A DNA stretch of 50,040 nt from a virus. Its lineage: Duplodnaviria; Heunggongvirae; Uroviricota; Caudoviricetes. The stretch lies in the IMG/VR virus record IMGVR_UViG_2529293039_000013; one strand, 5' to 3'. Both the position numbers and the translations under genes were made by a program. Of the stretch, positions 17,365-36,813 are shown piece by piece (the first letter of the stretch is position 1; every line of letters begins with the position of its first letter). The notes below the pieces were generated by a model. It searched no databases. It was not told where the DNA came from and worked only from the letters and a program-made list of their open reading frames with translations.

Positions 17365-19218
17365 ATGTCGATTAAACATTATGATGTTGTCAGGGCGGCG
17401 TCGCCGTCAGACCTTGCGGAAAAGCTGACACACAAACTGAAAGAGGGCTGGCAGCCGTTTGGTAGTCCGGTGGCCATAACCCCTTATACCCTGATGCAGG
17501 CGATTACAGCAGAAGGTGATGTGGTGGTCAGTGGTGCAACTGAGCCGGATTGGTACTACGTCATCGTACTGGCCGGGCAGTCCAATGCCATGGCTTACGG
17601 TGAAGGGCTTCCGCTGCCGGATTCATACGATGCTCCGGATCCGCGCATTAAACAGCTGGCGCGCCGCAGTACAGTTACGCCGGGTGGGGCTGCATGCAGA
17701 TATAACGATATTATTCCGGCCGACCACTGCCTGCATGATGTGCAGGATATGAGTACGCTGAATCATCCGAAGGCAGACCTGAGCAAAGGGCAGTACGGCT
17801 GTGTCGGCCAGGGCTTACATATTGCCAAAAAACTGCTCCCGTATATCCCGAATAACGCGGGGATCCTGCTGGTACCATGCTGTCGTGGTGGTTCGGCATT
17901 CACCCAGGGCGCGGAGGGGACATTCAGTGCGGACACGGGGGCCAGCCAGGATTCGGCACGCTGGGGTGTGGGTAAACCGTTATATCAGGACCTGATTGCG
18001 CGCACTAAAGCTGCATTACAGAAGAACCCGAAAAATGTGTTGCTGGCGGTGTGCTGGATGCAGGGAGAGTTTGACATGAGCGCCGCCACCCACGCACAGC
18101 AACCTGCGCTGTTTACAGCCATGCTGACACAGTTTCGTGCTGACCTCTCCGTGTTTAACGCGCAGTGCCATGGTGGCAGTGCTGCAGATGTGCCGTGGAT
18201 TTGTGGTGACACGACGTATTACTGGAAAAATACATACGCTACCCAGTACGACACCGTGTACGGCGGGTATAAAAACAGGGAGAGTGAGGGCGTTTATTTT
18301 GTGCCCTTCATGACAGACGGTAACGGCGTCAATACCGCCACTAACGCACCGGCAGAAGATCCGGATATTCCGGCATCAGGATATTACGGTGCGGCATCGA
18401 GAACGAATGGAAACCAGGTATCATCAAACCGCCCGACACATTTCAGTTCATGGGCGCGCAGGAGCATTATTCCGGATCGTATGGCAACCGCTATTCTGAA
18501 CGCAGCCGGGCGCACCTCAGCTTTCATCAGTGGTAAGGCACCGGAAATCAAACCCTCGCCCGGCGGCAACACGCCATCGGGGCCGTCTGAAGATGCATCC
18601 GTACGCACAATCTCCCTGTTGCCGACAGCCGGAGAGGCTGCTGCGCAGGGCTGGACCATTAAGGACGGCGGAATTCAGTTGTCGGGTGGTGTATTTAAGA
18701 TCGCCAAGCAGAGCAATAAAACCTGGTCCCTGATGCATCCGGTGGATGACGCAGTCTCCCTGCTGACACGGGGTGGCAGACTGAGCTGTAAGTTTCGACT
18801 GTCAGGCGCACTGACCAACAACCAGTTCGGCCTGGGAATTTATCTGTATACCGATGTAGCGTTACCTGACGTCGTGGCGATGACCGGGACTGGTAACCCG
18901 TTCCTGATGTCGTTCTTCACCCAGACCACAGACGGCAAACTGAATCTGATGCATCACAAGAAAGCAGGAAACACAAAGTTGGGCGAGTTCGGGAATTACA
19001 GTAATGACTGGCAGACGCTGGAACTGGTGTTCACCGCCGGCAGTGCCACGGTTACTCCGAAACTGAATGGAGTGGCTGGCCCGGCATTCCAGGTCATAAA
19101 AGACAGTCTGACACTGGGGCTGAATGCGCTGACGCTGACGGATATTACCAAAAATGCAGCGTATGGCGTTGAGATAGAAAGTCTGGTGCTGGAGATAAAT
19201 GCACCGGCATCATCATAA
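17365..19218 (+). CDS. prophage sialate O-acetylesterase (NanS-p-like; DUF1737 N-terminus plus SASA domain)
   Basis: GQSN esterase motif (VLAGQSNAMAYGEG); 617 aa; position between Q/tRNAs and lysis genes. Confidence 0.8.
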   Translation: MSIKHYDVVRAASPSDLAEKLTHKLKEGWQPFGSPVAITPYTLMQAITAEGDVVVSGATEPDWYYVIVLAGQSNAMAYGEGLPLPDSYDAPDPRIKQLARRSTVTPGGAACRYNDIIPADHCLHDVQDMSTLNHPKADLSKGQYGCVGQGLHIAKKLLPYIPNNAGILLVPCCRGGSAFTQGAEGTFSADTGASQDSARWGVGKPLYQDLIARTKAALQKNPKNVLLAVCWMQGEFDMSAATHAQQPALFTAMLTQFRADLSVFNAQCHGGSAADVPWICGDTTYYWKNTYATQYDTVYGGYKNRESEGVYFVPFMTDGNGVNTATNAPAEDPDIPASGYYGAASRTNGNQVSSNRPTHFSSWARRSIIPDRMATAILNAAGRTSAFISGKAPEIKPSPGGNTPSGPSEDASVRTISLLPTAGEAAAQGWTIKDGGIQLSGGVFKIAKQSNKTWSLMHPVDDAVSLLTRGGRLSCKFRLSGALTNNQFGLGIYLYTDVALPDVVAMTGTGNPFLMSFFTQTTDGKLNLMHHKKAGNTKLGEFGNYSNDWQTLELVFTAGSATVTPKLNGVAGPAFQVIKDSLTLGLNALTLTDITKNAAYGVEIESLVLEINAPASS

Positions 19219-19368
19219 AAAGTGAGCCAGCCAAATGGAAGGTATCGTTAAACTCACCGGTAGTGTCAGTGGGTCGTCTGAGATGCCTGCATGAGTTATC
19301 AGAGCCATCAGTACTTAACTGGTGGCTTTTTTTATTGCTGTCAGCTTCCGGATAACGGGAGACGGGGT

Positions 19369-19584
19369 ATGTACCAGATGGAAAAAATCACAACAGGTGT
19401 GTCATACACCACGTCAGCGGTGGGAACGGGCTACTGGTTCCTGCAGTTGCTGGACAGGGTTTCCCCGTCTCAGTGGGCGGCAATAGGCGTGCTGGGGAGT
19501 CTGCTGTTTGGGCTGCTGACATATCTGACTAACCTGTATTTCAAAATCAGAGAGGACCGTCGTAAGGCGGCGCGGGGGGAGTAA
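19369..19584 (+). CDS. class II pinholin (S21-like) with dual-start motif
   Basis: 71 aa [15 protein letters not shown]...[13 protein letters not shown] matching phage 21 S from memory; Met1 and Met4 starts. Confidence 0.8.
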
Positions 19585-19588
19585 AGCG

Positions 19589-19933
19589 ATGAAGAAAAAA
19601 TACGAACTGGGTGTTAAAGGGATAAATAATTACCCGGATAAGATTACTGTTACTGTGGCACTGGAAATTGGTGGGTATCCGTCACTGTTGTTGCCAGATG
19701 TGGCGATTAGTCTTGACCGTACTGAAGGTGCCACGCTGGAGTTTTACGAAGCTGAGGCGAAAAAGCAGGCGAAGCAGTTTTTCATGGATGTTGCTGCCGG
19801 GTTATGTGAAGGGGATGGTCCGTTGCCGGAAAAGCGGCCCATCATTTTAGAGGCGCAGGATGTGTTGATAACCTACAGAGGAAAACTACCGGGAATAATT
19901 ACTGGTTCTCTGAAGACTCCACCGCTGGCCTGA
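19589..19933 (+). CDS. hypothetical protein inserted between holin and endolysin
   Basis: strong GGGGGGAG RBS; 114 aa; no family recognised. Confidence 0.5.
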   Translation: MKKKYELGVKGINNYPDKITVTVALEIGGYPSLLLPDVAISLDRTEGATLEFYEAEAKKQAKQFFMDVAAGLCEGDGPLPEKRPIILEAQDVLITYRGKLPGIITGSLKTPPLA

Positions 19934-19983
19934 AGACTTAATATATCCAGGGATTTGAAATCGATAAACCCTGATAAATATCC

Positions 19984-20517
19984 ATGAACGCAAAAATCAG
20001 ATACGGCCTGTCGGCTGCCGTTCTGGCGCTGATTGGTGCAGGGGCGTCTGCGCCTGAAATCCTCGACCAGTTTCTTGACGAAAAAGAAGGTAACCACACC
20101 ACGGCATACCGTGATGGTGCGGGTATCTGGACCATCTGCCGCGGTGCCATCCTGGTGGATGGTAAACCTGTCGTCCCGGGCATGAAGTTGTCGAAGGAAA
20201 AATGCGACCAGGTTAACGCCATTGAACGTGATAAGGCGCTGGCATGGGTGGAGAAAAACATCAGAGTGCCACTGACCGAACCCCAGAAAGCGGGGATTGC
20301 GTCATTCTGTCCGTACAACATTGGTCCTGGTAAGTGTTTCCCGTCGACGTTTTACAGACGAATTAATGCAGGTGATCGCAGGGGAGCGTGTGAGGCGATT
20401 CGCTGGTGGATTAAGGACGGTGGCAGAGACTGCCGTATTCGTTCAAACAACTGTTACGGTCAGGTATCCCGTCGTGACCAGGAGAGCGCGCTGGCGTGCT
20501 GGGGTATCGACAGATAA
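19984..20517 (+). CDS. SAR endolysin (T4-lysozyme-like glycoside hydrolase with N-terminal signal-anchor-release domain)
   Basis: hydrophobic Gly/Ala-rich N-terminus (LSAAVLALIGAGASA) then lysozyme region; follows pinholin. Confidence 0.85.
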   Translation: MNAKIRYGLSAAVLALIGAGASAPEILDQFLDEKEGNHTTAYRDGAGIWTICRGAILVDGKPVVPGMKLSKEKCDQVNAIERDKALAWVEKNIRVPLTEPQKAGIASFCPYNIGPGKCFPSTFYRRINAGDRRGACEAIRWWIKDGGRDCRIRSNNCYGQVSRRDQESALACWGIDR

Positions 20518-20611
20518 GCAGAATATTTTGCTGAAAAATAAGGCATGGCCACGCGGGCGGATAACACGAAATCCTGCGAACTGGCGAAACGTAAGTGAAT
20601 AAAAGTAAAAA

Positions 20612-20642
20612 CCCCGTTTGTTGGCACCAAGCGGGGTTTTGT
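20612..20642 (+). terminator. hairpin with T-run immediately downstream of endolysin
   Basis: imperfect hairpin ccccg...cgggg followed by T-rich tract. Confidence 0.45.
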
Positions 20643-20673
20643 GTTTCTGACCTTGAGTAAGGCAAGGGAGAAC

Positions 20674-20856
20674 ATGGCGAAGTATAAACGAATTCTGTTG
20701 AGGTTGACTATGAAAAATGGCCTTGAACTGAAAGCGCCTGTAACTGATGACATCAGCAGAGCACTGGCTTTTGCCATTAAGTGGGTGGCGGTCGGTGTTG
20801 CTGTGTCCCCGATGCTGTATGGGCTGGCAAAACTGGTCATTGCGTTGAAATCGTGA
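20674..20856 (+). CDS. hypothetical protein (60 aa) between endolysin and Rz
   Basis: GGGAGA RBS; hydrophobic C-terminal half. Confidence 0.3.
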
Positions 20857-20870
20857 AGGGAGGATTAAGC

Positions 20871-21002
20871 ATGTCAGACAAACTCATAACGCTGGCGAAG
20901 ATCCTCTGTGTAATTGTCGGCATTTCATTTTCACTAATGCTGGTTGCTCTTTTTCTTTCCATGGCCTGGATGATGTTGTCTTCGTCGGGGTTGCTGGGGT
21001 GA
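20871..21002 (+). CDS. small membrane peptide (43 aa) translationally coupled to Rz
   Basis: GGGAGG RBS; single hydrophobic helix; stop overlaps Rz GTG start. Confidence 0.35.
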
Positions 21003-21472
21003 ACATAAACCGAATGCTTTCCGCGTTTATCGTTATTCTGCTGGTGGCCTGTGGTGCGCTGTGGATGGCAACAGACCATTACCGTGATAACGCGATTACC
21101 TACAAAGCGCAGCGCGATAACAAAGCCAGTGAACTGAAGCTGGCGAACGCAACCATTACTGATATGCAGGTGCGCCAGCGCGATGTTGCTGCGCTCGATG
21201 CAAAATACTCGAGGGAATTATCCGATGCGAGAGCTGAAAATGAAACTCTGCGCGCTGATGTTGCCGCTGGTCGTAAGCGCCTGCGGATCAACGCCACCTG
21301 TCCAGGCTCCGTGCGTGAAGCCCCCACCACCTCCGGCGTGGATAATGCAACCGGCCCCCAACTGGCAGACACCGTTACACGGGATTATTTCACCCTCAGA
21401 GAGCGGCTGATGACGATGCACAAGCAACTGGAAGGGGCACAGGACTATATCCGCACTCAGTGCCTGAAATAA
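20999..21472 (+). CDS. inner-membrane spanin Rz
   Basis: strong similarity to lambda Rz from memory ([15 protein letters not shown]...[10 protein letters not shown]). Confidence 0.85.
21225..21410 (+). CDS. outer-membrane lipoprotein spanin Rz1, embedded in +1 frame of Rz
   Basis: lipobox LPLVVSAC; proline-rich [14 protein letters not shown] as in lambda Rz1. Confidence 0.75.
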
Positions 21473-21822
21473 GTTTTGTTGATGCGCCGTATCGTCGCTG
21501 TATTCCCTCATTAACAGAGACCGCAGCCCGACAGGGAGACTCCTCTGCGCGAGTGTGCGGGGATAATCAAAAACGATACACACCGGGGTTTACCGCGTTA
21601 ACGGAGCGCGGCGTTGTCCCCTCATAGTCGCCTGTCCGGTGCGATGGTGGAAGAAGCCGGATGTTTATCACTATTAATTGATGACACAGAAATGGATTCA
21701 TTGAATTTCAGCACGTTTTTGTATTCGTGTTATTGAACATCTGTTTATTTTACTTTTAACATATTGATAATAAAAAGAGCTGTAAATCTTTAGATGAGTC
21801 GATTTTGTCCGGGGAAGTTCAA

Positions 21823-21963
21823 ATGGATTTTATGCTGACGGTTTCTGGTGTGGTTATCCTGTCCATTGCTTATACTGCAGATAAATATGGCTGCCATTTG
21901 TTATCACGTATTGGCGCTTATTGTTCGTTGATGCTGATTTTCTCGTCGCTTTTTTTTGAGTAA
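21823..21963 (+). CDS. small hydrophobic ORF (46 aa), doubtful
   Basis: ATG with GGGGAAG upstream in AT-rich intergenic region. Confidence 0.2.
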   Translation: MDFMLTVSGVVILSIAYTADKYGCHLLSRIGAYCSLMLIFSSLFFE

Positions 21964-22095
21964 GTTATATTAATTATAACAAATAATTTTCTGTGTTATT
22001 TTTTCAGGCTATCCCGTCAGAGGGGAAGCCTGTACTGCCGGGGAGCGAATGGAAAACTGATGTGTCCGGTAACTGCGTGTTCTGTGAACACCATG

Positions 22096-22281
22096 TTACT
22101 TAATTATGTAATTCATACCCGAACTCTCTGTTGACAGCCTTCTTCTGCAGGCTTCAATAACCCACGCTGAAAAGTTTCCTGAACCTTTCAGATCAAGAGC
22201 GATGTTAATTTGTTCAATCATCTGGTTTGGAAATCGGATGTTGCGGGTTGTTGTTCTGCGGGTTCTGTTCTTTGATGACAT
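22096..22281 (-). CDS. small DNA-binding-like protein (YlcI/YnfO-like, DUF3950?)
   Basis: 61-aa ORF between lysis genes and terminase, the position YlcI occupies in DLP12; sequence not verified. Confidence 0.4.
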   Translation of the reverse strand: MSSKNRTRRTTTRNIRFPNQMIEQINIALDLKGSGNFSAWVIEACRRRLSTESSGMNYIIK

Positions 22282-22487
22282 AATGTTTCCCCATATTCAG
22301 TGTTGCTGATTTGTATTATCTGAAGTTGCTTTTACGTTAATTTGACGCAGATCAATTAATACGATACCTGCGTCATAATTGATTATTTCTCGTGGTTTGA
22401 TGGCGTACACACATGTTGTGATAAACCTTATATAGATGATAATCATTATCATTTCGTGGGTCCTTTCCGGCGATCCGACCGGTTACG

Positions 22488-22499
22488 GGGCGGCGACCT
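22488..22499. other. cos cohesive-end site identical to lambda 12-nt overhang
   Basis: GGGCGGCGACCT followed by cgcgggttttcgctatttatgaaaattt as in lambda cos, about 170 nt upstream of Nu1. Confidence 0.65.
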
Positions 22500-22668
22500 C
22501 GCGGGTTTTCGCTATTTATGAAAATTTTTAGGGAAAAATCAGATCCGTTCTTCTTCTTTTTAACTGTTTGATTATCAATAGAATTTTAAAAATATAAAAG
22601 GATCTGACAAAGGCTGTTTTTGTTAGAAAACGCCATTTTCAGATCCTTTCTGGTTCCCGGGGGAGTGT

Positions 22669-23217
22669 ATGAACGTCAATAAGAAAAAACTGGCCGATAT
22701 TTTTGGCGTTGATGTCAGGACCATCACCGCCTGGCAGAGTCAGGGGTTACCACTAGTTTCTGGTGGAGGGAAAGGGACTGAATCAGTTTTTGATACAACT
22801 GCTGCCATTCAGTGGTATGCGCAGAGGGAAGCTGATATTGAAAACGAAAAACTCCGTAAAGAGAGCGAGGATTTGAGGGCTGCCAGCGAATCAGACCTTC
22901 AGCCCGGCACCATTGATTACGAACGTTACCGACTGACGAAGGCACAGGCCGATGCACAGGAGCTGAAAAATGCTCGTGAGGAAGGCCTTGTCCTCGAGAC
23001 GGAGTTATTTACCTACATCTTTCAGCGAGTGGCACAGAATATATCAGGGATCCTTGTCCGTGTCCCTCAGACACTGCAGCGTAAATACCCTGATATATCA
23101 CCCGCACATCTTGATGCTGTGAAAACTGAAATCGCGAAAGCATCCGATGTGGCTTCTGAAGCCGGTGAGAATGTGCGCAGGTGGATTGATGATTTCAGAC
23201 GAACTGAGGGCGGCTAA
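22669..23217 (+). CDS. terminase small subunit (lambda Nu1-like)
   Basis: N-terminus [28 protein letters not shown] matches lambda Nu1 from memory. Confidence 0.85.
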
Positions 23218-25116
23218 TTCTGCAGGAGCGATAGCAACCGGCCTCCTTGCGCTAAAAATTCCTGTCCCTCTGACGACAGTTCAGTGGGCAGATCGACATT
23301 ATTACCTTCCGAAAGAGTCATCTTACACCCCGGGGCGGTGGGAAACACTGCCGTTTCAGGTTGCCATCATGAACAGCATGGGGAATGACCGGATCCGCAC
23401 TGTTAATCTGATTAAATCTGCCCGTGTTGGTTATACAAAGATGTTGCTGGGAGTGGAGGCTTATTTTATTGAGCATAAATCACGCAACAGCCTTCTTTTC
23501 CAGCCCACGGATTCTGCTGCTGAAGATTTTATGAAATCTCATGTGGAACCCACGATCAGGGATGTGCCGGTTTTACTCGATCTTGCACCGTGGTTTGGGC
23601 GTAAACATCGTGATAATACCCTCACGCTGAAACGCTTTTCATCGGGCGTCGGTTTCTGGTGCCTGGGCGGCGCTGCCGCCAAAAACTACCGTGAAAAATC
23701 CGTGGACGTGGTCTGCTATGACGAACTTTCCTCGTTCGAGCCGGATGTCGAAAAAGAGGGCTCGCCAACCCTGCTGGGGGATAAGCGTATTGAGGGGTCG
23801 GTGTGGCCAAAATCCATTCGCGGCTCGACGCCTAAAATCAAAGGCACCTGCCAGATCGAAAAAGCGGCCAACGAGTCGGCGCATTTCATGCGTTTTTATG
23901 TGCCCTGCCCGCACTGTGGGGAGGCGCAGTATCTGAAATTTGGCGATGAGTCCACGCCTTTTGGGCTTAAATGGGAGAAGGACAGTCCCGAAAGCGTTTT
24001 CTACCTCTGTGAACATCATGGCTGCGTGATCCATCAGTCTGAGCTTGACCAGAACAACGGGCGGTGGATCTGTGAAAACACGGGCATGTGGACCCGTGAC
24101 GGTCTGACGTTTTTCAGCGCCCGGGGTGATGAAATTCCGCCGCCGCGCTCCATCACGTTCCATATCTGGACGGCGTACAGTCCGTTCACCACCTGGGTAC
24201 AGATTGTCTATGACTGGCTGGATGCACTGAAAGATCCCAACGGCCTGAAAACCTTTGTGAACACCACGCTGGGCGAGACCTGGGAAGAGGCCGTGGGCGA
24301 AAAACTCGATCACCAGGTACTGATGGATAAGGTGGTGCGTTACACGGCGGCGGTGCCTGCCCGGGTGGTTTATCTGACGGCGGGCATTGACTCGCAGCGA
24401 AACCGTTTTGAGATGTATGTCTGGGGATGGGCTCCGGGAGAGGAAGCTTTTCTGGTGGATAAAATCATCATTATGGGGCGTCCTGATGAGGAAGAGACGC
24501 TGTTACGTGTGGATGCGGCGATCACAAAAAATACCGCCATGCGGATGGCACCGAAATGACTATTTCCCGTGTCTGCTGGGACACCGGGGGGATCGATGGT
24601 GAAATTGTTTATCAGAGATCAAAAAAACACGGTGTTTTCCGGGTGCTGCCGGTAAAAGGCGCATCTGTCTATGGCAAGCCGGTGATCACCATGCCAAAAA
24701 CCCGCAATCAGCGGGGCGTGTATCTGTGTGAAGTGGGAACGGACACCGCAAAAGAAATTCTCTATGCCCGTATGAAAGCCGATCCCTCGCCTGCGGATGA
24801 AGCCACGTCGTATGCCATCCGTTTTCCTGATGATCCGGAGATTTTTTCGCAGACAGAGGCGCAGCAACTGGTGGCGGAAGAGCTGGTGGAGAAGTGGGAA
24901 AAAGGAAAGATGCGTCTGCTGTGGGATAACAAAAAGCGGCGTAACGAAGCGCTGGACTGCCTGGTGTATGCCTACGCGGCATTACGTGTGTCCGTGCAAC
25001 GCTGGCAGCTTGATCTGGCTGTACTGGCAAAATCCCGGGAAGAAGAGACGACCCGGCCAACCCTGAAAGAACTGGCAGCGAAGCTGTCCGGAGGAGTGAA
25101 TGGTTACAGTCGCTGA
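23189..25116 (+). pseudogene. terminase large subunit (lambda A-like), interrupted by a frameshift
   Basis: track ORFs 23147-24559 and 24556-25116 are in different frames; both match lambda gpA; junction in an A-run. Confidence 0.8.
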
Positions 25117-25306
25117 ACTGCAGGCGCTGCGTCAGGCGCGCCTTGATTTATTAACCGGTAAACGGGTGGTGTCTGTCCAGAAAGATGGTCGCAGAATTGA
25201 ATATACGGCGGCTTCTCTGGATGAGCTTAACCGGGCGATCAATGATGCGGAGTCGGTACTGGGGACAACCCGGCGTCGCCGTCGTCCGCTGGGAGTGAGG
25301 TTATGA
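25100..25306 (+). CDS. head-tail joining protein W
   Basis: 68 aa; LTGKRVVSVQKDGRRIEYTAAS matches lambda gpW from memory. Confidence 0.8.
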   Translation: MVTVAELQALRQARLDLLTGKRVVSVQKDGRRIEYTAASLDELNRAINDAESVLGTTRRRRRPLGVRL

Positions 25307-26896
25307 AACGAACGCCTGTCCTGATTGATGTGAACGGCGTTCCGCTTCGTGAGAGTCTCAGCTACAACGGGGGCGGTGCAGGATTTGGCGGGCAAATGGC
25401 GGAGTGGTTGCCACCGGCGCAGAGTGCCGATGCGGCCCTGCTGCCCGCGTTGCGTCTGGGGAATGCCCGGGCAGATGATCTGGTGCGCAATAACGGAATA
25501 GCGGCCAATGCGGTGGCCCTGCATAAGGATCACATTGTCGGGCATATGTTTCTTATCAGCTACCGTCCGAACTGGCGCTGGCTGGGGATGCGGGAGACCG
25601 CAGCAAAAAGCTTTGTCGATGAGGTGGAGGCGGCCTGGTCGGAATACGCCGAAGGGATGTCTGGCGAGATCGACGTGGAAGGAAAACGCACGTTCACGGA
25701 ATTTATCCGTGAAGGTGTGGGCGTTCATGCGTTTAACGGCGAAATCTTTGTGCAGCCGGTCTGGGATACGGAAACCACGCAGTTATTCCGTACGCGTTTT
25801 AAAGCCGTGAGTCCGAAACGGGTGGACACGCCAGGACACGGTATGGGGAACCGTTTTCTGCGGGCCGGGGTGGAGGTCGATCGATATGGCCGTGCCGTTG
25901 CGTACCATATCTGTGAGGATGATTTTCCGTTCTCCGGGAGTGGACGATGGGAACGGATCCCGCGTGAACTTCCCACCGGGCGTCCGGCCATGCTGCATAT
26001 TTTCGAGCCGGTAGAGGACGGGCAGACCCGTGGGGCCAACCAGTTTTACAGCGTCATGGAACGGCTGAAGATGCTCGATTCCCTGCAGGCAACACAGCTT
26101 CAGTCGGCCATTGTGAAAGCCATGTATGCAGCGACGATTGAAAGTGACCTTGATACCGAAAAGGCCTTTGAATATATCGCCGGTGCGCCGCAGGGGCAGA
26201 AGGATAATCCGCTTATTAATATTCTGGAGAAGTTCTCCAGCTGGTATGACACGAATAACGTGACGCTGGGTGGTGTCAAAATTCCGCACCTTTTCCCCGG
26301 GGATGATCTGAAACTACAGACTGCGCAGGATTCAGACAATGGATTTTCGGCGCTTGAACAGGCGCTGCTGCGGTATATCGCCGCCGGTTCTTGGCGTTTC
26401 CTACGAACAGTTGTCCCGTGATTACTCGAAGGTCAGTTATTCAAGTGCCAGGGCCTCTGCCAATGAGTCGTGGCGCTATTTTATGGGGCGGCGAAAATTT
26501 ATTGCGGCCCGGCTGGCCACGCAGATGTTTTCCTGCTGGCTGGAAGAGGCACTTCTTCGGGGGATTATCCGTCCGCCACGGGCGCGTTTTGATTTTTATC
26601 AGGCGCGATCAGCCTGGTCACGGGCAGAGTGGATTGGTGCCGGAAGAATGGCCATTGACGGGCTCAAGGAGGTTCAGGAATCGGTGATGCGCATTGAGGC
26701 CGGACTGAGCACGTATGAGAAAGAGCTGGCGCTGATGGGCGAGGATTATCAGGACATTTTCCGCCAGCAGGTCAGGGAATCTGCAGAGCGGCAAAAAGCC
26801 GGACTCTCACGTCCGGTGTGGATAGCGCAGGCGTATCAGCAGCAGATAGCGGAGAGTCGCAGGCCGGAAGAGGAGACAACACCCCGTGAGACGTAA
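25303..26896 (+). pseudogene. portal protein (lambda B-like), interrupted by a frameshift
   Basis: track ORFs 25303-26421 and 26339-26896 in different frames; junction at LLRYIAAG / LGVSYEQLS. Confidence 0.8.
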
Positions 26897-28393
26897 TCTT
26901 TCACACATTATTGCCGCAGCATTCAATGAACCGCTGCTTCTGGAGCCCGCCTATGCGCGGGTTTTCTTTTGCGCGCTCGGGCGCGAGATGGGGGCAGCAA
27001 GTCTTTCGGTACCACAGCAGCAGGTACAGCTTGATGCTCCCGGAATGCTGGCTGAAACGGACGAGTACATGGCCGGAGGTAAACGACCGGCCCGTGTTTA
27101 CCGGGTGGTGAACGGTATTGCGGTACTGCCGGTGACCGGCACGCTGGTGCACCGGCTGGGGGGGATGCGGCCATTTTCCGGAATGACAGGCTATGACGGC
27201 ATTGTCGCCTGTCTTCAGCAGGCAATGGCGGATAGCCAGGTGCGGGGCGTACTGCTGGGACATTGACAGTCCGGGCGGGCAGGCCGCCGGCGCGTTTGAC
27301 TGCGCTGACATGATTTACCGCCTCCGTCAGCAGAAGCCGGTCTGGGCACTGTAGCAATGACACGGCCTGTTCTGCAGCCATGCTGCTGGCGTCGGCCTGC
27401 TCCCGACGGCTGGTTACCCAGACATCCCGTATCGGCTCCATTGGCGTGATGATGAGCCATGTCAGCTATGCCGGTCATCTGGCGCAGGCCGGTGTGGATA
27501 TCACGCTGATTTACTCAGGGGCGCACAAGGTGGATGGCAATCAGTTTGAAGCCTTACCGGCAGAGGTTCGCCAGGACATGCAGCAGCGCATTGATGCGGC
27601 GCGCCGGATGTTTGCCGAAAAAGTGGCCATGTTTACCGGTCTGTCTGTTGATGCCGTCACGGGAACAGAGGCCGCCGTTTTTGAAGGTCAGTCCGGCATT
27701 GATGCCGGGCTGGCGGATGAATTAGTCAATGCGTCGGATGCCATCAGTGTGATGGCCACGGCGCTGAACAGTAATGTCAGAGGAGGCACTATGCCGCAAT
27801 TAACTGCAACGGAAGCCGCCGCGCAGGAGAACCAGCGAGTGATGGGGATCCTGACATGCCAGGAAGCGAAAGGACGTGAACAGCTTGCCACGATGCTGGC
27901 AGGACAACAGGGCATGAGCGTTGAACAGGCCCGGGCGATTCTGGCCGCGGCGGCACCGCAGCAGCCGGTGGCATCCACGCAGAGTGAAGCCGATCGCATT
28001 ATGGCGTGTGAAGAAGCGAACGGTCGTGAACAACTGGCGGCAACGCTGGCGGCGATGCCGGAGATGACGGTGGAAAAAGCCCGCCCGATCCTGGCTGCTT
28101 CACCGCAGGCGGATGCCGGACCCTCACTCCGTGATCAGATCATGGCACTGGATGAGGCAAAAGGGGCTGAGGCGCAGGCTGAACAGCTGGCTGCCTGCCC
28201 GGGAATGACTGTGGAGAGCGCCCGGGCTGTGCTGGCTGCGGGATCAGGTAAGGCAGAACCGGTCTCTGCATCCACAACCGCCCTGTTTGAACGCATCATG
28301 GCGAACCATTCACCGGCTGCGGTACAGGGTGGCGTGCCACAGACGTCAGCAGACGGTGATGCGGACGTGAAAATGCTCATGGCCATGCCATGA
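26886..28393 (+). pseudogene. head maturation protease/scaffold C (lambda C/Nu3-like), interrupted by two frameshifts
   Basis: N-part ends 27266, C-part starts 27380; conserved middle segment reads in the third frame. Confidence 0.75.
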
Positions 28394-28429
28394 AGCCAGT
28401 GCTGACCATCAACAGGAGGTTTTTACAAT

Positions 28430-28777
28430 ATGGTAACGAAAAACATCACTGAACAGCGTGCGGAAGTACGTATTTTTGCCGGTAATGATCCGGCTCATAC
28501 CGCCACAGGCAGCAGCGGGATTTCCTCGGCAACACCGGCACTGACGCCCCTGATGCTGGATGAAGCCAGCGGGAAACTGGTGGTCTGGGACGGACAGAAA
28601 GCCGGTAGTGCAGTTGGCATACTGGTACTGCCGCTTGAAGGCACAGAGACGGTACTGACCTATTACAAGTCGGGGACCTTTGCGACGGAGGCAATCCGCT
28701 GGCCTGAAAGTGTGGATGAACACAAAAAGGCAAATGCCTTTGCCGGCAGTGCCCTGAGTCACGCGGCGCTGCCGTAA
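28430..28777 (+). CDS. head decoration protein D
   Basis: GNDPAHTATGSSG and YYKSGTFAT motifs match lambda gpD from memory. Confidence 0.8.
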   Translation: MVTKNITEQRAEVRIFAGNDPAHTATGSSGISSATPALTPLMLDEASGKLVVWDGQKAGSAVGILVLPLEGTETVLTYYKSGTFATEAIRWPESVDEHKKANAFAGSALSHAALP

Positions 28778-28834
28778 CACGTTATCAGGCCACCGCGGTG
28801 GCCTGACTGATTTCTGAATGAAAGGAACTGATTT

Positions 28835-29863
28835 ATGGGATTGTTTACGACCCGCCAGTTACTCGGTTATACCGAACAAAAAGTGAAATTTCGTGCGCTG
28901 TTTCTGGAGCTGTTTTTCCGCCGTACGGTGAATTTCCATACCGAAGAGGTGATGCTGGACAAAATTACCGGAAAAACGCCGGTGGCGGCCTATGTCTCCC
29001 CGGTTGTTGAAGGAAAAGTGCTGCGTCATCGCGGTGGTGAAACCCGCGTGTTACGTCCGGGCTACGTCAAGCCGAAACACGAATTTAATTACCAGCAGGC
29101 GGTTGAGCGTCTTCCCGGTGAAGATCCGGCTCAACTGAACGACCCGGCCTACCGTCGTCTGCGTATCATCACCGATAACCTCAAACAGGAAGAGCATGCC
29201 ATTGTCCAGGTGGAAGAAATGCAGGCGGTGAATGCCGTGCTGTATGGCAAATACACCATGGAAGGGGATCAGTTTGATACTGTCGAGGTGGATTTTGGAC
29301 GCTCTGAAGGAAATAACATTGAGCAGGCCGACGGTAAAAAATGGTCTGAGCAGGACCGTGATACGTTTGATCCGACGCATGATATTGACCTCTACTGCGA
29401 TCAGGCCAGCGGTCTTGTGAATATTGCCATTATGGACGGTACTGTCTGGCGTCTGCTGAATGGTTTTAAGCTGTTCCGCGAAAAACTGGATACCCGTCGC
29501 GGCTCAAATTCACAACTCGAAACGGCAGTGAAAGACCTGGGCGCGGTGGTGTCTTTCAAAGGGTATTACGGCGATCTGGCCATTGTGGTGGCGAAAACGT
29601 CTTATGTGGCAGAGGACGGTACCGAAAAACGTTATCTGCCGGAGGGCACGCTGGTCCTGGGAAATACGGCTGCAGATGGGATCCGTTGTTACGGTGCCAT
29701 TCAGGATGCGCAGGCGTTGTCCGAAGGTGTGGTGGCTTCTTCCCGTTACCCGAAACACTGGCTGACCGTGGGCGATCCGGCCCGTGAATTTACCATGACG
29801 CAGTCCGCACCGCTGATGGTGCTGCCGGATCCGGATGAGTTTGTGGTGGTGCAGGTGAAATAA
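28835..29863 (+). CDS. major capsid protein E
   Basis: 342 aa; strong match to lambda gpE from memory (TGDPAREFTMTQSAPLM). Confidence 0.9.
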   Translation: MGLFTTRQLLGYTEQKVKFRALFLELFFRRTVNFHTEEVMLDKITGKTPVAAYVSPVVEGKVLRHRGGETRVLRPGYVKPKHEFNYQQAVERLPGEDPAQLNDPAYRRLRIITDNLKQEEHAIVQVEEMQAVNAVLYGKYTMEGDQFDTVEVDFGRSEGNNIEQADGKKWSEQDRDTFDPTHDIDLYCDQASGLVNIAIMDGTVWRLLNGFKLFREKLDTRRGSNSQLETAVKDLGAVVSFKGYYGDLAIVVAKTSYVAEDGTEKRYLPEGTLVLGNTAADGIRCYGAIQDAQALSEGVVASSRYPKHWLTVGDPAREFTMTQSAPLMVLPDPDEFVVVQVK

Positions 29864-29914
29864 TCCGTGAGCGGGGGCGAAATGCCCCCGTGTCTTTTTT
29901 CACAGGGGGCTGAT

Positions 29915-30298
29915 ATGGCAACAAAAGAAGAAAATCAGAAACGTCTTCGTCAACTGGCTGGCCTGCTGGGGCGCGAGGCGGATATGGCGGGGAGTGCTGC
30001 GGATATTGCGCAACGTGTGTCTGAGTGGGAAGAGGAGCTTGCTGCTTCCCGGGAGGGCATTATGCCTGGTGATGAGAGCGGGCCTGAGCAAAATCACACA
30101 GACGATGGTGAGCAGTTGCACAACACTGATGCTACGGATGATGTTAAAGCGGTCCGTGTGCGGAAATGCCTGCATGTGATGGGGTATTGCCCGGAAACAG
30201 GCCGTCCCGTTGAACTGACGTACCGGGGCATGCGTGTTCTGGTGCCATTACCACTGGCGACAGCCATGATACAGCACGGAACGGCTGAGCATGCGTGA
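29915..30298 (+). CDS. DNA packaging protein FI-like
   Basis: position between E and FII; internal start with AGGGGG RBS; weak similarity. Confidence 0.5.
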   Translation: MATKEENQKRLRQLAGLLGREADMAGSAADIAQRVSEWEEELAASREGIMPGDESGPEQNHTDDGEQLHNTDATDDVKAVRVRKCLHVMGYCPETGRPVELTYRGMRVLVPLPLATAMIQHGTAEHA

Positions 30299-30644
30299 TT
30301 TTCAGAATGCCTTTGATGCTGCCCTCGCCGGGGTGGACAGCACGATTGTTGAAGTGATGGGGCTCTGTGCGCAGTTCACCTCGGGGGCACAGTGTGGCAG
30401 CGAAGTTCAGGGGGTTTTTGACGATCCGGAGTCGCTGGGGTTTGCCGGTAGCGGGGTCCGTATTGAAGGAAGCAGCCCGTCATTATTTGTGCGGACGGAT
30501 ACGGTTCGTGCCGTGCGGCGTGGTGACACGCTGACCATTAATGGTGAGATATTCTGGGTGGATCGTGTTTCTCCGGATGACGGGGGCAGCTGTTATCTCT
30601 GGCTCAACCGTGGTCAACCACCCGCAGTTAACCGGCGACGATAA
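30291..30644 (+). CDS. head-tail connector FII
   Basis: 117 aa; C-terminus WVDRVSPDDGGSCYLWLNRGQPPAVNRRR matches lambda FII. Confidence 0.8.
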   Translation: MRDFQNAFDAALAGVDSTIVEVMGLCAQFTSGAQCGSEVQGVFDDPESLGFAGSGVRIEGSSPSLFVRTDTVRAVRRGDTLTINGEIFWVDRVSPDDGGSCYLWLNRGQPPAVNRRR

Positions 30645-30659
30645 ACGCAGGGTGAAATT

Positions 30660-31193
30660 ATGACGATAAAAGGGCTTGATCAGGCGATTGACAATCTGAG
30701 CCGGGTTCGTAAAAACGCCATTCCGGCGGCTTCAGCAATGGCCATTAACCGCGTGGCCACAACGGCGATTAATCAGTCTTCATCACAGGTTGCCCGGGAG
30801 ACCAAGGTTCGCCGGAAACTGGTTAAGGAACGGTCCAGACTGAAACGGGCGACGGTCAGAAATCCGAATGCCAGAATTATCGTTAACCGCGGTGATCTCC
30901 CTGTGATTAAGCTGGGGATCAGGATGCCGGGGCGTCGCCCGAACAGCATACTTAAAGCCGGTCAGCATCGGTATCAGCGGGCATTTATTCAGCGATTAAA
31001 AAATGGTCGCTGGCATGTCATGCAGCGTGTGGCCGGGAAAAACCGTTACCCCATTGATGTGGTGAAAATCCCGATGGCGGCCCCACTGAAACAGGCATTT
31101 GATGAGAATGTTGACCGTATCCGGCGTGAACGCCTGCCTAAAGAACTGGCATCCGTGCTGAAACAACAACTGAGGATTGCAATAAAACGATGA
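30660..31193 (+). CDS. tail completion protein Z
   Basis: N- and C-terminal thirds match lambda gpZ from memory; central region shorter and divergent. Confidence 0.8.
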   Translation: MTIKGLDQAIDNLSRVRKNAIPAASAMAINRVATTAINQSSSQVARETKVRRKLVKERSRLKRATVRNPNARIIVNRGDLPVIKLGIRMPGRRPNSILKAGQHRYQRAFIQRLKNGRWHVMQRVAGKNRYPIDVVKIPMAAPLKQAFDENVDRIRRERLPKELASVLKQQLRIAIKR

Positions 31194-31585
31194 AACACAC
31201 TGACATTCGTGCCGCAGTGCTGGATGCACTCGAGCAGCATGAACACGGGGCGACGCTGTTTGATGGTCGCCCCGTTGTTTTTGACGAAGAGGATTTTCCT
31301 GCGATCGCGGTTTATCTGACGGATGCAGAGTATACCGGTGAAGAGCTGGATGCAGATACCTGGCGGGCCACGCTGCATATTGAGGTGTTTTTACCGGCAC
31401 AGGTACCGGATTCAGAGCTTGATCAGTGGATGGAAAGCCGGATTTACCCGGCGATGACCGCGATCCCGGCACTGGCAGGACTGATTACCACGATGGTTAC
31501 GCAGGGCTATGAGTATCGTCGTGATGACGATATGGCGTTATGGAGTTCTGCAGATCTGACTTATTCCATTACATACGAGATGTGA
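31190..31585 (+). CDS. tail terminator protein U
   Basis: 131 aa; [18 protein letters not shown] matches lambda gpU. Confidence 0.85.
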
Positions 31586-31592
31586 GGACGAT

Positions 31593-32345
31593 ATGGCAAC
31601 ACCAAATCCCCTTGAGCCGGTAAAAGGTGCCGGTACCACTCTGTGGGTTTACAACGGCAAGGGTGATGCTTATGCAAACCCGTTGTCAGACGATGACTGG
31701 CAGCGACTGGCTAAGGTGAAGGATCTGACGCCGGGCGAGATGACGGCAGAATCCTACGATGATAACTACCTGGATGATGAAGACGCGGACTGGACCGCGA
31801 CCGGGCAGGGGCAGAAATCTGCAGGTGATACCAGTTTTACGCTGGCCTGGAAACCGGGAGAGGAAGGCCAGAAAGGGCTTATAGGCTGGTTTGAAAGCGG
31901 CGATGTCCGGGCCTATAAAATCCGTTTTCCGAATGGCACGGTGGATGTGTTTCGTGGCTGGGTCAGCAGTATCGGTAAGGCCGTGACGGCGAAAGAAGTG
32001 ATCACCCGCACGGTGAAAGTCACTAACGTGGGTAAACCTTCTGTAGCGGAAGAACGCAGCAAAATTACGCCGGTCAGTGCGATTAAGGTGACGCCGACAT
32101 CCGGTACGGTGGCAAAAGGGAAAACAACCACCCTGACGGTTTCTTTTGAGCCGGAAAGTGCAACCGACAAGACGTTCAGAGCGGTTTCCGCCGATCCGTC
32201 GAAAGCCACCATTAGTGTGAAAGATATGACAATTACGGTAAACGGCGTGGCGACAGGTAAGGTGCAGATCCCTGTGGTGAGCGGAAATGGTCAGTTCGCC
32301 GCAGTGGCTGAAGTCACCGTTACTGAAGCGGGCGCTGCAGGGTAA
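31593..32345 (+). CDS. major tail protein V with C-terminal Ig-like domain
   Basis: strong match to lambda gpV ([11 protein letters not shown]...). Confidence 0.9.
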
Positions 32346-32358
32346 ACGGAGGTCATAC

Positions 32359-32790
32359 ATGTTTCTGAAAACAGAACAATTTGAATATAACGGTGTGTCC
32401 GTCACGCTTTCCGAATTGTCTGCGCTGCAGCGTATTGAGCATCTTGCCCTCCTGAAACGGCGTGCAGAACAGGCAGAATCCAGCGGCAACCTGCAGGTAA
32501 GCGTGGAAGATCTCGTCAGAACCGGCGCGTTTCTGGTGGCGATGTCCCTGTGGCATAACCATCCGCAGAAAACGGCATCACCGTCAATGAATGAGGCTGT
32601 GATGCAGATCGAACAGGAGGTGCTCACCACCTGGCCTGCGGATGCCATTGCCCGGGCGGAAGATGTGGTGTTGCGTCTGTCCGGGATGAGCGGGGCTGTT
32701 CATGCGGATACTGACAGCACCGAAGTGGCGAAAAATAACGCGCTGACTGATGATGATTTTTCTGCGGGAAAGTCTTCGACGGCGAGCTGA
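32359..32790 (+). CDS. tail assembly chaperone G
   Basis: MFLKTEQFEYNGVSVTLSELSALQRIEHLAL matches lambda gpG; GGAGG RBS. Confidence 0.8.
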   Translation: MFLKTEQFEYNGVSVTLSELSALQRIEHLALLKRRAEQAESSGNLQVSVEDLVRTGAFLVAMSLWHNHPQKTASPSMNEAVMQIEQEVLTTWPADAIARAEDVVLRLSGMSGAVHADTDSTEVAKNNALTDDDFSAGKSSTAS

Positions 32791-33230
32791 ATTTTGCCCT
32801 CAGACTGGCGCGTGAGATGGGGAGGCCTGACTGGCGCGCCATGCTTGCCGGGATGACATCCACCGAATATGCCGACTGGCGACATTTTTACCGTACGCAT
32901 TATTTTCTCGATACCCAACTGGATATGCATTTTTCCGGGCTGACGTACGCCGTACTCAGCCTGTTTTTTTGCGATCCGGATATGCATCCCTCTGATTTCA
33001 GTCTGCTTGCCCCCCGGCGTGAGGAAGCGCAGACGGAGATGCCGGATGAGGAAAAAATGCTGATGCAGAAAGCGGCAGGACTTGCCGGAGGCGTCCGGTT
33101 TGGTGGGGACGGAGGGCGTGAGATTTTATCGTCTGCGGATGTGGCGGATGTCAGCGAGGATGATGTCGCATTAATGATGGCTTCAGCGGGGATTTCCGGA
33201 GGTGTGAGATATGTCCCAGCCGGTTGGTGA
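32359..33230 (+). CDS. tail assembly chaperone G-T fusion made by programmed -1 frameshift
   Basis: slippery G GGA AAG near end of G; -1 frame continues as T-like sequence (FDGELNFALRLAREMGRPDWRAMLAG) to 33230. Confidence 0.65.
32766..32772 (+). promoter_or_regulatory. programmed -1 ribosomal frameshift slippery heptamer GGGAAAG
   Basis: canonical lambda G-T slippery sequence in the expected frame. Confidence 0.6.
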
Positions 33231-35789
33231 TCTTGTTATTGACCTGAGTCTGGATGCGGTCCGTTTCGATGAGCAGATGAGCCGGGTAAGGCGTCATTTT
33301 TCCGGACTGGAGACTGACGCCAGAAAAACCGCCGGTGTTGTTGAGCAGAACCTGAGTCGTCAGGCGCTGGCTGCACAAAAAGCCGGGATTTCCGTCGGGC
33401 AGTATAAAGCGGCCATGCGAACCCTGCCCGCACAGTTTACGGATATCGCCACGCAGCTTGCCGGTGGTCAGAATCCCTGGCTGATCCTGCTGCAACAGGG
33501 CGGTCAGGTGAAGGACTCCTTCGGCGGGATGATCCCCATGCTCAGGGGACTTGCCGGTGCGATCACCCTGCCGATGGTCGGGGTCACCTCGCTGGCGGTG
33601 GCGACAGGTGCGCTGGCGTACGCCTGGTACCAGGGGGATTCCACGCTTTCAGCGTTTAATAAAACCCTGGTTCTTTCCGGTAATCAGTCCGGACTGACTG
33701 CCGATCGCATGCTGACGCTCTCCAGAGCCGGACAGGCCGCAGGGCTGACGTTTAACCAGGCGAGTGAGTCACTGGCAGCCCTGGTGAATGCCGGTGTGCG
33801 TGGTGGTGAACAGTTTGATGCCATCAACCAGAGTGTCGCGCGTTTTGCTTCTGCATCCGGTGTGGAGGTGGACAAGGTTGCAGAGGCTTTCGGAAAACTG
33901 ACTACCGACCCGACGTCGGGACTGATGGCGATGGCGCGCCAGTTCCGTAACGTGACGGCAGAGCAGATTGCGTATGTTGCACAGCTGCAGCGTTCCGGAG
34001 ACGAGGCCGGGGCATTGCAGGCGGCGAACGATATCGCCACGAAAGGCTTTGATGAGCAGACCCGTCGCCTGAAAGAAAACATGGGAACACTGGAGACCTG
34101 GGCGGATAAAACAGGGAAGGCATTCAAATCGATGTGGGATGCCATTCTGGATATCGGTCGTCCTGAGTCCTCAGCGGATATGCTCGCCAGTGCACAGAAG
34201 GCATTTGATGAGGCGGATAAAAAATGGCAGTGGTACCAGAGCCGGAGCCAGCGCCGGGGAAAACCGCCTCTTTCCGGGCCAACCTTCAGGGCGCATGGAA
34301 TGACCGGGAAAATGCCCGTCTGGGGCTGGCAGCGGCCACGCTGCAGTCGGATATGGAAAAAGCCGGTGAACTGGCCGCCAGGGACCGGGCCGAACGGGAC
34401 GCATCACAGCTGAAGTATACCGGAGAGGCGCAGAAGGCGTATGAGCGTCTGCTGACGCCGCTGGAGAAATATACCGCCCGTCAGGAAGAACTGAATAAGG
34501 CCCTGAAAGACGGGAAAATCCTGCAGGCGGATTACAACACGCTGATGGCGGCGGCGAAAAAGGATTATGAATCGACGCTGAAAAAGCCGAAGTCGTCAGG
34601 AGTCAAAGTGTCAGCCGGTGAGCGTCAGGAAGACCAGGCGCATGCTGCCCTGCTGGCGCTTGAAACCGAGCTCCGGACGCTGGAAAAACACAGCGGTGCG
34701 AATGAGAAAATCAGCCAGCAGCGTCGCGATTTATGGAAAGCGGAAAATCAGTATGCGGTCCTGAAAGAGGCAGCCACGAAACGGCAGTTATCTGAGCAGG
34801 AAAAATCCCTGCTGACCCATGAGAAAGAGACGCTGGAGTACAAACGCCAGCTGGCTGAGCTGGGAGACAAAGTTGAACACCAGAAACGGCTGAATGAGCT
34901 GGCACAGCAGGCTGCGCGGTTTGAACAGCAGCAGAGTGCGAAGCAGGCGGCAATCAGTGCCCAGGCGCGGGGCCTCACCGACCGTCAGGTGCAGCGGGAG
35001 TCGGAAGAGCAGCGCCTTCGTGACGTGTACGGTGATAATCCGGATGCGCTGGCGAAGGCCACATCTGCACTGAAGAACACCTGGTCTGCGGAGGAGCAGC
35101 TTCGTGGAAGCTGGATGGCCGGTCTGAAGTCCGGCTGGGGCGAGTGGGCAGAAAGTGCGACGGACAGTTTTTCGCAGGTTAAAAGCGTGGCCACGCAGAC
35201 CTTTGACGGTATTGCACAGAATATGGCAGCGATGCTGACCGGCAGCGAACAGAGCTGGCGTGGTTTCACCCGTTCTGTGCTCTCCATGCTGACAGAGATT
35301 TTTCTGAAGCAGGCCATGGTGGGGATTGTCGGGAGTATTGGCAGCGCCATGGGTGGTGCTTTCGGTGGTGGGGCGTCTGCCTCCACGGGGACGGCCATTC
35401 AGGCTGCGGCGGCGAACTTCCATTTCGCGACCGGAGGATTTACGGGAACCGGTGGCAAATACGAACCTGCCGGTATTGTCCACCGCGGGGAGTTTGTCTT
35501 CACGAAGGAGGCAACCAGCCGGATTGGCGTCGGCAACCTGTATCGTCTGATGCGCGGGTATGCGGAAGGTGGTTATGTGGGCGGTGCCGGAAGTCCGGCG
35601 CAGATGCGGCGGGCGGAAGGCATTAGTTTTAATCAGAACAATCACGTGGTGATTCAGAACGACGGCACCAACGGACAGGCGGGGCCGCAGCTGATGAAGG
35701 CGGTGTATGACATGGCCCGCAAGGGGGCGCAGGATGAGATTCAGGCGCAGATGCGTGATGGCGGCGTCTTTTCCGGAGGCAGGCGATGA
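33211..35789 (+). pseudogene. tail tape measure protein H, interrupted by a frameshift
   Basis: track ORFs 33211-34413 and 34224-35789 in different frames; both match lambda gpH; junction at an A-run. Confidence 0.8.
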
Positions 35790-36115
35790 AAACATTTCGC
35801 TGGAAAGTGAAGCCGGATATGGAGGTGAACTCGCAGCCATCGGTGCGTGAAGTGCGTTTTGGTGACGGGTATTCGCAGCGTATGGCGGCGGGGCTGAATG
35901 CTGACCTGAAAACATACCGTGTGACGCTTTCCGTGACCCGGGAGGAGGCCCGACATCTGGAGGCATTCCTGGCAGAGCACGGTGGCTGGAAGGCGTTTCT
36001 GTGGACACCGCCTTATGCCTGGCGGCAGATAAAGGTGACCTGTGCCGCCTGGTCATCACGGGTTCGCATGCTGCGGGTTGAATTCAGCGCGGAGTTTAAG
36101 CAGGTGGTGAACTGA
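35786..36115 (+). CDS. tail tip protein M
   Basis: 109 aa; MKTFRWKVKP matches lambda gpM. Confidence 0.85.
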   Translation: MKTFRWKVKPDMEVNSQPSVREVRFGDGYSQRMAAGLNADLKTYRVTLSVTREEARHLEAFLAEHGGWKAFLWTPPYAWRQIKVTCAAWSSRVRMLRVEFSAEFKQVVN

Positions 36116-36813
36116 TGCAGGATATTCACGAAGAAAGTCTGAACGAGTCGGTTAAATCAGAGCAGTCACCGCGGGTGGTACTCTGGGAAATCGACCTGAC
36201 GGTACAGGGTGGTGAGCGGTATTTTTTCTGCAATGAGCTGAATGAAAAAGGGGAGGCGGTTACCTGGCAGGGGCGGCAATATCAGGCATACCCGATTGAC
36301 GGCAGTGGCTTTGAGATGAACGGGAAGGGCAGCAGTGCCCGCCCGTCGCTGACGGTGTCGAATCTGTTCGGTCTGGTCACCGGAATGGCGGAGGACCTGC
36401 AGAGCCTGGTGGGGGCCACGGTGGTCCGCCGCCGGGTGTATGCCCGTTTTCTGGATGCGGTGAATTTTGTGGCGGGCAATCCGGAAGCGGACCCGGAGCA
36501 GGAGCTGAGCGACCGCTGGGTGGTGGAGCAGATGTCAGAGCTGACGGCCATGACAGCCTCGTTTGTGCTGGCAACACCGACGGAGACGGACGGAGCGCTG
36601 TTTCCCGGTCGCATCATGCTGGCGAACACCTGTATGTGGGATTACCGGGGAGATGAATGCGGGTATAACGGTCCTGCGGTGGCGGATGAGTTCGATAAAC
36701 CCACCACCGATATCCGTAAGGACAGATGCAGCAAGTGCATGCGCGGGTGTGAGATGCGCGGCATGGTGGCTAATTTTGGCGGTTTCCTTTCCATTAACAA
36801 ACTTTCGCAGTAA
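36115..36813 (+). CDS. tail tip protein L
   Basis: 232 aa; matches lambda gpL incl. C-terminal FGGFLSINKLSQ. Confidence 0.85.
   Translation: MQDIHEESLNESVKSEQSPRVVLWEIDLTVQGGERYFFCNELNEKGEAVTWQGRQYQAYPIDGSGFEMNGKGSSARPSLTVSNLFGLVTGMAEDLQSLVGATVVRRRVYARFLDAVNFVAGNPEADPEQELSDRWVVEQMSELTAMTASFVLATPTETDGALFPGRIMLANTCMWDYRGDECGYNGPAVADEFDKPTTDIRKDRCSKCMRGCEMRGMVANFGGFLSINKLSQ

Follow-up and report, generated by a model that had tools for sequence, protein, structure and literature searches.

The portal gene described here lies in a lambdoid prophage of Escherichia coli DEC2D. The window, that is, the whole 50,040-nt stretch of DNA that was analysed, is an exact substring of contig AIFC01000020.1 (121,877 bp) in the draft whole-genome assembly GCA_000249215.2, and the contig position equals the window position plus 53673. 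The full portal gene is of the lambda/phage-21 type, spans 25303-26896 and is split in two by one extra T, located at window position 26388 and contig position 80061. The gene keeps its conserved position in the gene calls and in annotated relatives, with gpW upstream and the S49 protease/scaffold gene downstream, and belongs to a head-gene module of ~6 kb. The features of the module and of the portal gene are as follows.

22600-28600, strand not specified: head-gene module with Nu1, terminase, gpW, portal, protease and gpD, of which the lineage has at least two near-identical copies
23189-25116, plus strand: terminase large subunit, with a private one-base deletion at 24523/24524 that changes ATCAACAAAAAA to ATCACAAAAAA (AA to A)
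25303-26421, plus strand: N-terminal frame of the portal gene in the ORF list, 372 aa, ending in ...LLRYIAAGSWRFLRTVVP and a stop
26339-26896, plus strand: C-terminal part of the portal gene in the shifted frame in the ORF list, reading ...LGVSYEQLSRDYS...
26388-26389, plus strand: one-base insertion, TT against a single T in relatives, which causes the portal frameshift
26886-28393, plus strand: head protease/scaffold gene, gpC-like, S49 peptidase, with private one-base insertions at 27257 (+G) and 27353 (+A)

As deposited, the portal gene does not form a single uninterrupted ORF of ~530 codons, the frame being split at 26388. Positions 26380-26399 read gccgccGGTTCTTggcgttt, and the GGTTCTT at 26386-26392 stands against GGTCTT in every intact relative, the extra base being 26388 or 26389. 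The final 10 residues of the 372-aa frame, SWRFLRTVVP, are out of frame. Within ORF 26339-26896 the true portal sequence starts at 26390, and the gene caller of the assembly placed this C-terminal part at 26483-26896 with a 137-aa product. Base-level alignments with over 30 relatives, phage 21 and E2348/69 among them, give GG-TCTT in all the other sequences, and intact relatives match the 1594-nt portal query over 1593 nt. Removal of one T yields an uninterrupted portal ORF of 1593 nt and 530 aa, the product of which is 100% identical to a protein found on 953 public contigs. The initial annotation had described a portal gene resembling lambda gpB with a +1 frameshift due to one extra T in GGTTCTT. 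The sequence and the ORF list bear out both the position and the two reading frames, while the extra T itself is borne out by the base-level alignments and by the 530-aa ORF that its deletion restores. The alignment with intact portal genes that was proposed at the same time shows a single T and one reading frame in all intact relatives. The portal frameshift in the deposited sequence is confirmed, and a chance resemblance is excluded.

The two portal fragments match the lambda-family portal profile, Pfam PF05136, over profile positions 2-319 (E=4e-81) and 320-354 (E=2e-11), respectively. The repaired protein covers positions 2-354 in one stretch with a score of 337.9 bits, the cut-off being 32.9 bits. 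It also aligns with Portal protein B, whose structure has been solved (PDB 8k38; E=1.4e-213), over query residues 5-523, with LLRYIAAGLGVSYEQLSR identical in both. The likeness to lambda gpB noted in the initial annotation is upheld by the profile as well as by this alignment. The portal gene of the window is an ordinary lambda/phage-21-type portal gene, and no new biology is involved.

The exact 372-aa product is recorded on one contig only, the DEC2D contig from which the window comes. A set of 1,854 complete E. coli genomes with 3,010 portal copies was searched with a 61-nt probe for the TT allele, and no copy matches the probe over its full length; two records reach 99% or more, and these are the two partial matches. 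A 26-mer carrying TT had no match among 185,579 species-representative genomes, in IMG/VR or in the JGI metagenomes. The sister-strain contigs that cover the site, from DEC2C and DEC2E, both have a single T. The TT allele is private to one assembly and absent from its close relatives; it is not a lesion common to related genomes or to independent assemblies. A different lesion of the portal gene does recur. A one-base deletion near 26271, which leaves products of 335 and 137 aa, was found in the NCTC genome LR134238.1 and in the Logan assemblies of the public sequencing runs ERR12757263 and SRR17282522, and looks like a real inherited portal pseudogene of another lineage (L036, L038 and L043).

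Three further single-base indels of the module are private to the DEC2D assembly. Together with the portal insertion at 26388 they comprise the terminase deletion at 24523/4 and the protease insertions at 27257 and 27353, all four inside the head module and within 2.9 kb, and each is a singleton in an alignment of 35 sequences. As deposited, the terminase gene is read as a 470-aa ORF and a second one of 186 aa; once repaired, it encodes 642 aa, 100% identical to a protein on 32 contigs. In the protease gene the insertion at 27353 creates a TAG and lies outside any homopolymer run, and the doubly repaired product of 501 aa is 100% identical to a protein on 994 contigs. A fourth gene of the prophage is broken outside the module:

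38992-42467, plus strand: tail-tip gene J, split into 917 and 256 aa by a one-base deletion in the A-run at 41672-41676

Repair of J yields a protein of 1158 aa, and an identical one is found on 11 contigs. The 917-aa J fragment, a 126-aa protease fragment and a 223-aa terminase fragment are recorded on the DEC2D contig only. The 256-aa C-terminal fragment of J is among the gene calls of DEC2C and DEC10B too, and J may be broken similarly in these two strains. With the indels removed, the terminase, portal, protease and J proteins carry no amino-acid substitutions relative to intact proteins in public data. There is no accompanying decay; in particular, neutral decay alongside the broken gene is not seen in the repaired portal, protease or terminase, which are the same as widespread intact proteins.

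Two of the fragments were considered as signs of inherited lesions and rejected. The 186-aa terminase ORF occurs on other contigs, but these arrive at it by a different one-base deletion (A6 to A5) located 2-7 nt away, which is common to independent assemblies (L010, L012 and L014). The matches to a 337-aa protease fragment sit at the very start of contigs of 1.3-1.7 kb.

The 35-sequence alignment covers window positions 23600-28600, and singleton indels were counted in it for each assembly. They occur in all four assemblies of the DEC project, with four in DEC2D and two each in DEC2C, DEC2E and AIEZ, and each of them is different. The DEC2C contig (AIFB01000034.1) lacks all four indels of the window and has private deletions of its own at 24906 in the terminase gene and at 26289 in the portal gene, as well as one at 22684 in Nu1, outside the aligned span. 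The DEC2E contig has two private deletions in the terminase gene, and AIEZ01000011.1 carries a -1/+1 pair at the start of the portal gene. No singleton indels were found in 22 assemblies from other projects, which include finished genomes, Logan assemblies and phage 21. They are present in four further assemblies rich in errors, which are either long-contig assemblies or older drafts (L008, L009, L011 and L037). The only other singleton columns come from the three sequences with the recurrent portal lesion, in which the deletions at 26270-26272 are one common lesion whose placement by the aligner varies; two of these sequences (L036 and L038) have one further private indel each. Singleton indels of the same kind are found in other assemblies of the same project, namely DEC2C, DEC2E and AIEZ.

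Unique prophage DNA, in place of host genes, was used as the control for the indel rate of the assemblies. In the DEC assemblies, private indels amount to 11 per 22.7 kb in the module and 2 per 41.65 kb in the adjacent unique DNA (P=3.8e-4), and the corresponding comparison within the window alone gives P=0.0076. The three DEC2 strains are closely related: 7 kb of their unique DNA holds 1-4 substitutions. To the right of the module, window positions 28596-36312 were compared with contigs AIFD01000025.1 of DEC2E (L021) and JANHLX010000078.1 of GCA_024495785.1 (L022); the identity is 99.95-99.97%, with zero gaps. The two sister contigs break at 28596 and 28996, at the right edge of the module. 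To the left, a G-run at 16255 is the sole indel difference from L025 (prophage B, described below) over 9.3 kb of unique left-arm DNA. It is noted that this run has six G in the window and five in L025, so that a small hypothetical ORF ends differently (69 against 76 aa). The four private indels lie in a multi-copy repeat that is hard to assemble and has clean unique flanks.

The two copies of the module can be seen in GCA_900448265.1, a long-contig genome of the NCTC type, which holds two prophages, A (L024) and B (L025), with the same intact terminase. From 13261 to ~26000 the window equals prophage B, apart from the G-run indel, substitutions at 21609 and 26013, and the deletion at 24523. 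From ~22600 to 35119 it equals prophage A, its closest relative, apart from 5 substitutions over 12.5 kb and the indels at 24523, 26388, 27257 and 27353. A three-way allele table places the change from B to A between 22690 and 26258, where A and B have no informative sites; one stray B allele follows at 27122. In DEC2C, the same left arm runs on into B-type head genes. The join of a B-type left side to an A-type right side in DEC2D may be a real recombinant or, more simply, a misjoin induced by the repeat. Alternating A and B alleles had been considered as a proof of a collapsed consensus; the single B-to-A switch that was seen fits a misjoin and a real recombinant alike.

The prophage also carries a lesion of another kind, and an IS element appears in its gene calls:

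33211-35789, plus strand: tape-measure gene, with an inherited, non-private one-base deletion at 34260 (A5 to A4)
43269-45070: IS21-family element, with a 340-aa transposase and a 259-aa IstB-like ATPase in the gene calls

The deletion at 34260 is common to the DEC2E contig L021, the GCA_024495785.1 contig L022 and prophage A, and an exact 61-mer of the allele is present in 6 complete genomes. The repaired 859-aa tape-measure sequence was not found in the protein collection. A second indel, at 30655 (+A), is likewise present in the sister contigs, and both are taken as real because they are common to these contigs. By comparative evidence, and leaving the IS element aside, the tape-measure frameshift appears to be the sole inherited one. 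The IS21-family element lies between lom (42512-43159) and a tail-fibre gene (45183-46496) and is absent from that place in the relative L004. Other contents of the window include a prophage-borne tRNA cluster at 15439-15688 (Met-CAT, Arg-TCG and Arg-TCT), downstream of the antiterminator region, and a sodC-like Cu/Zn superoxide dismutase gene on the minus strand at 38331-38858, within the tail module. The right end, 47480-50040, encodes an EspW-like effector (352 aa), an NleG-family protein (216 aa) and an IpaB/EvcA-family chaperone (196 aa); these cargo genes, like that of the dismutase, were named with the help of the gene calls and of the annotation of L004.

Considering these observations, we propose that the extra T is very probably a base-calling, consensus or assembly error in the DEC2D draft and no mutation of the bacterium. 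This reading is favoured because the TT allele is private and stands among other private indels within a multi-copy repeat, because the unique flanks are clean (zero gaps to the right and a single G-run difference over 13261-22600), and because other assemblies of the project carry different private indels in the same module. It is also favoured because the lesions that do recur, at 34260 and 30655, are common to L021, L022 and L024, unlike TT. We infer from the comparisons that the cause would lie in the assembly process. The head module is present in at least two near-identical copies on different lambdoid prophages of the lineage; the assembler would have threaded one contig through this repeat, entering it as prophage B and leaving it as prophage A; and the consensus built across the repeat would have picked up several single-base indels on the way. 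Some observations count against an error. The runs that hold three of the indels are very short (T to TT, GG to GGG and AA to A) and the indel at 27353 is in none, so that they fit poorly with the textbook error in long homopolymers. The B-to-A switch is a single clean crossover, as a real recombinant prophage would show.

The inherited tape-measure frameshift in the same prophage counts against an error as well, and it leads to the main alternative, in which the extra T is a real and very recent inactivating mutation private to DEC2D, the head genes being unselected and in ongoing decay. Selection would not oppose such a mutation, because the prophage already has that lesion; the gene calls add an IS21-family element beside the tail-fibre genes, and real portal lesions do exist in the family, the deletion near 26271 being an example. 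However, the mutation would have to be one of four independent frameshifts in 2.9 kb against 5 substitutions in 12.5 kb, for which P is ~0.008 if the share of indels is taken as 0.1. All four would have fallen in the multi-copy module and none in ~23 kb of flanking unique DNA, save the one G-run. The three DEC2 strains and AIEZ would each need 2 to 4 different private frameshifts in the same few kilobases, with none in the neighbouring DNA and no amino-acid changes alongside them, and the TT allele has been seen nowhere else in the collections searched. We consider a real mutation at this site unlikely. It is far less likely still that all the private frameshifts of DEC2D (terminase, portal, protease and J) and those of DEC2C, DEC2E and AIEZ are real, a proposition to which we attach very little weight. 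A programmed +1 ribosomal frameshift that still gives a full-length portal protein could be imagined from the overlap of the two frames, as a ribosome that slipped by +1 after GGU would regain the portal sequence. Recoding sites of that kind are conserved among homologues, yet the extra base is present in none of the 3,010 homologous copies, and the proposal was rejected for want of conservation. Intact relatives all encode the portal in one frame, no known +1 shift motif, for instance a slippery codon followed by a hungry or stop codon, was found by inspection at GCC-GGU-UCU-UGG, and three genes nearby have private breaks of the same kind. Recoding is the least credible of these explanations, and we give it practically no chance.

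If the extra T is an error of the draft, as we favour, then the DEC2D record alone would score this prophage as being without terminase, portal, protease and tail-tip genes. Pseudogene counts and calls of intact or defective prophages that are derived from this project's drafts are probably too high where multi-copy prophage modules are concerned. Were the portal frameshift real, the result would be a private pseudogene of an ordinary sort, and the prophage has an inherited lesion in any case. Were all the private frameshifts real, they would imply an unusually high and locally targeted indel rate in the head/packaging module of multi-copy lambdoid prophages, arising for instance from error-prone gene conversion or repair between prophage copies, and disabling virion production strain by strain.

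The gene itself is readily compared with known portal genes. Once repaired, the protein of 530 aa aligns with lambda gpB (PDB 8k38) from end to end, and the portal gene of phage 21 (OL657228.1, CPT_21_04) has 97.5% DNA identity and the same synteny, with gpW on one side and the S49 protease/scaffold gene on the other. The window's gene differs from both in carrying the extra T and in being read as two ORFs. The real portal pseudogene allele near 26271 resembles the TT allele in affecting the same gene by the same type of lesion, ~117 bp upstream, but it recurs in independent assemblies whereas TT has been seen once. Genuinely defective lambdoid prophages are known, as in the defective-prophage pool of O157 Sakai. 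The prophage of the window is like the defective lambdoid prophages of EPEC and EHEC, for example that of E2348/69, whose copy of the module has a truncated protease by annotation, in its inherited tape-measure lesion and in the IS21-family element among its gene calls. Real lesions of that type are common to related genomes, unlike the portal TT allele. Draft assemblies, early next-generation ones as well as uncorrected long-read ones, are known to contain indel errors that create false frameshifts, above all where prophage repeats are collapsed or multi-copy. The case described here differs from these in that most of its indels are outside long homopolymers. It resembles them in the clustering of private single-base changes in a repeat, in repairs that yield the common intact alleles, and in the presence of other private indels in the same module, both in assemblies of the same project and in L008, L009, L037 and L011.
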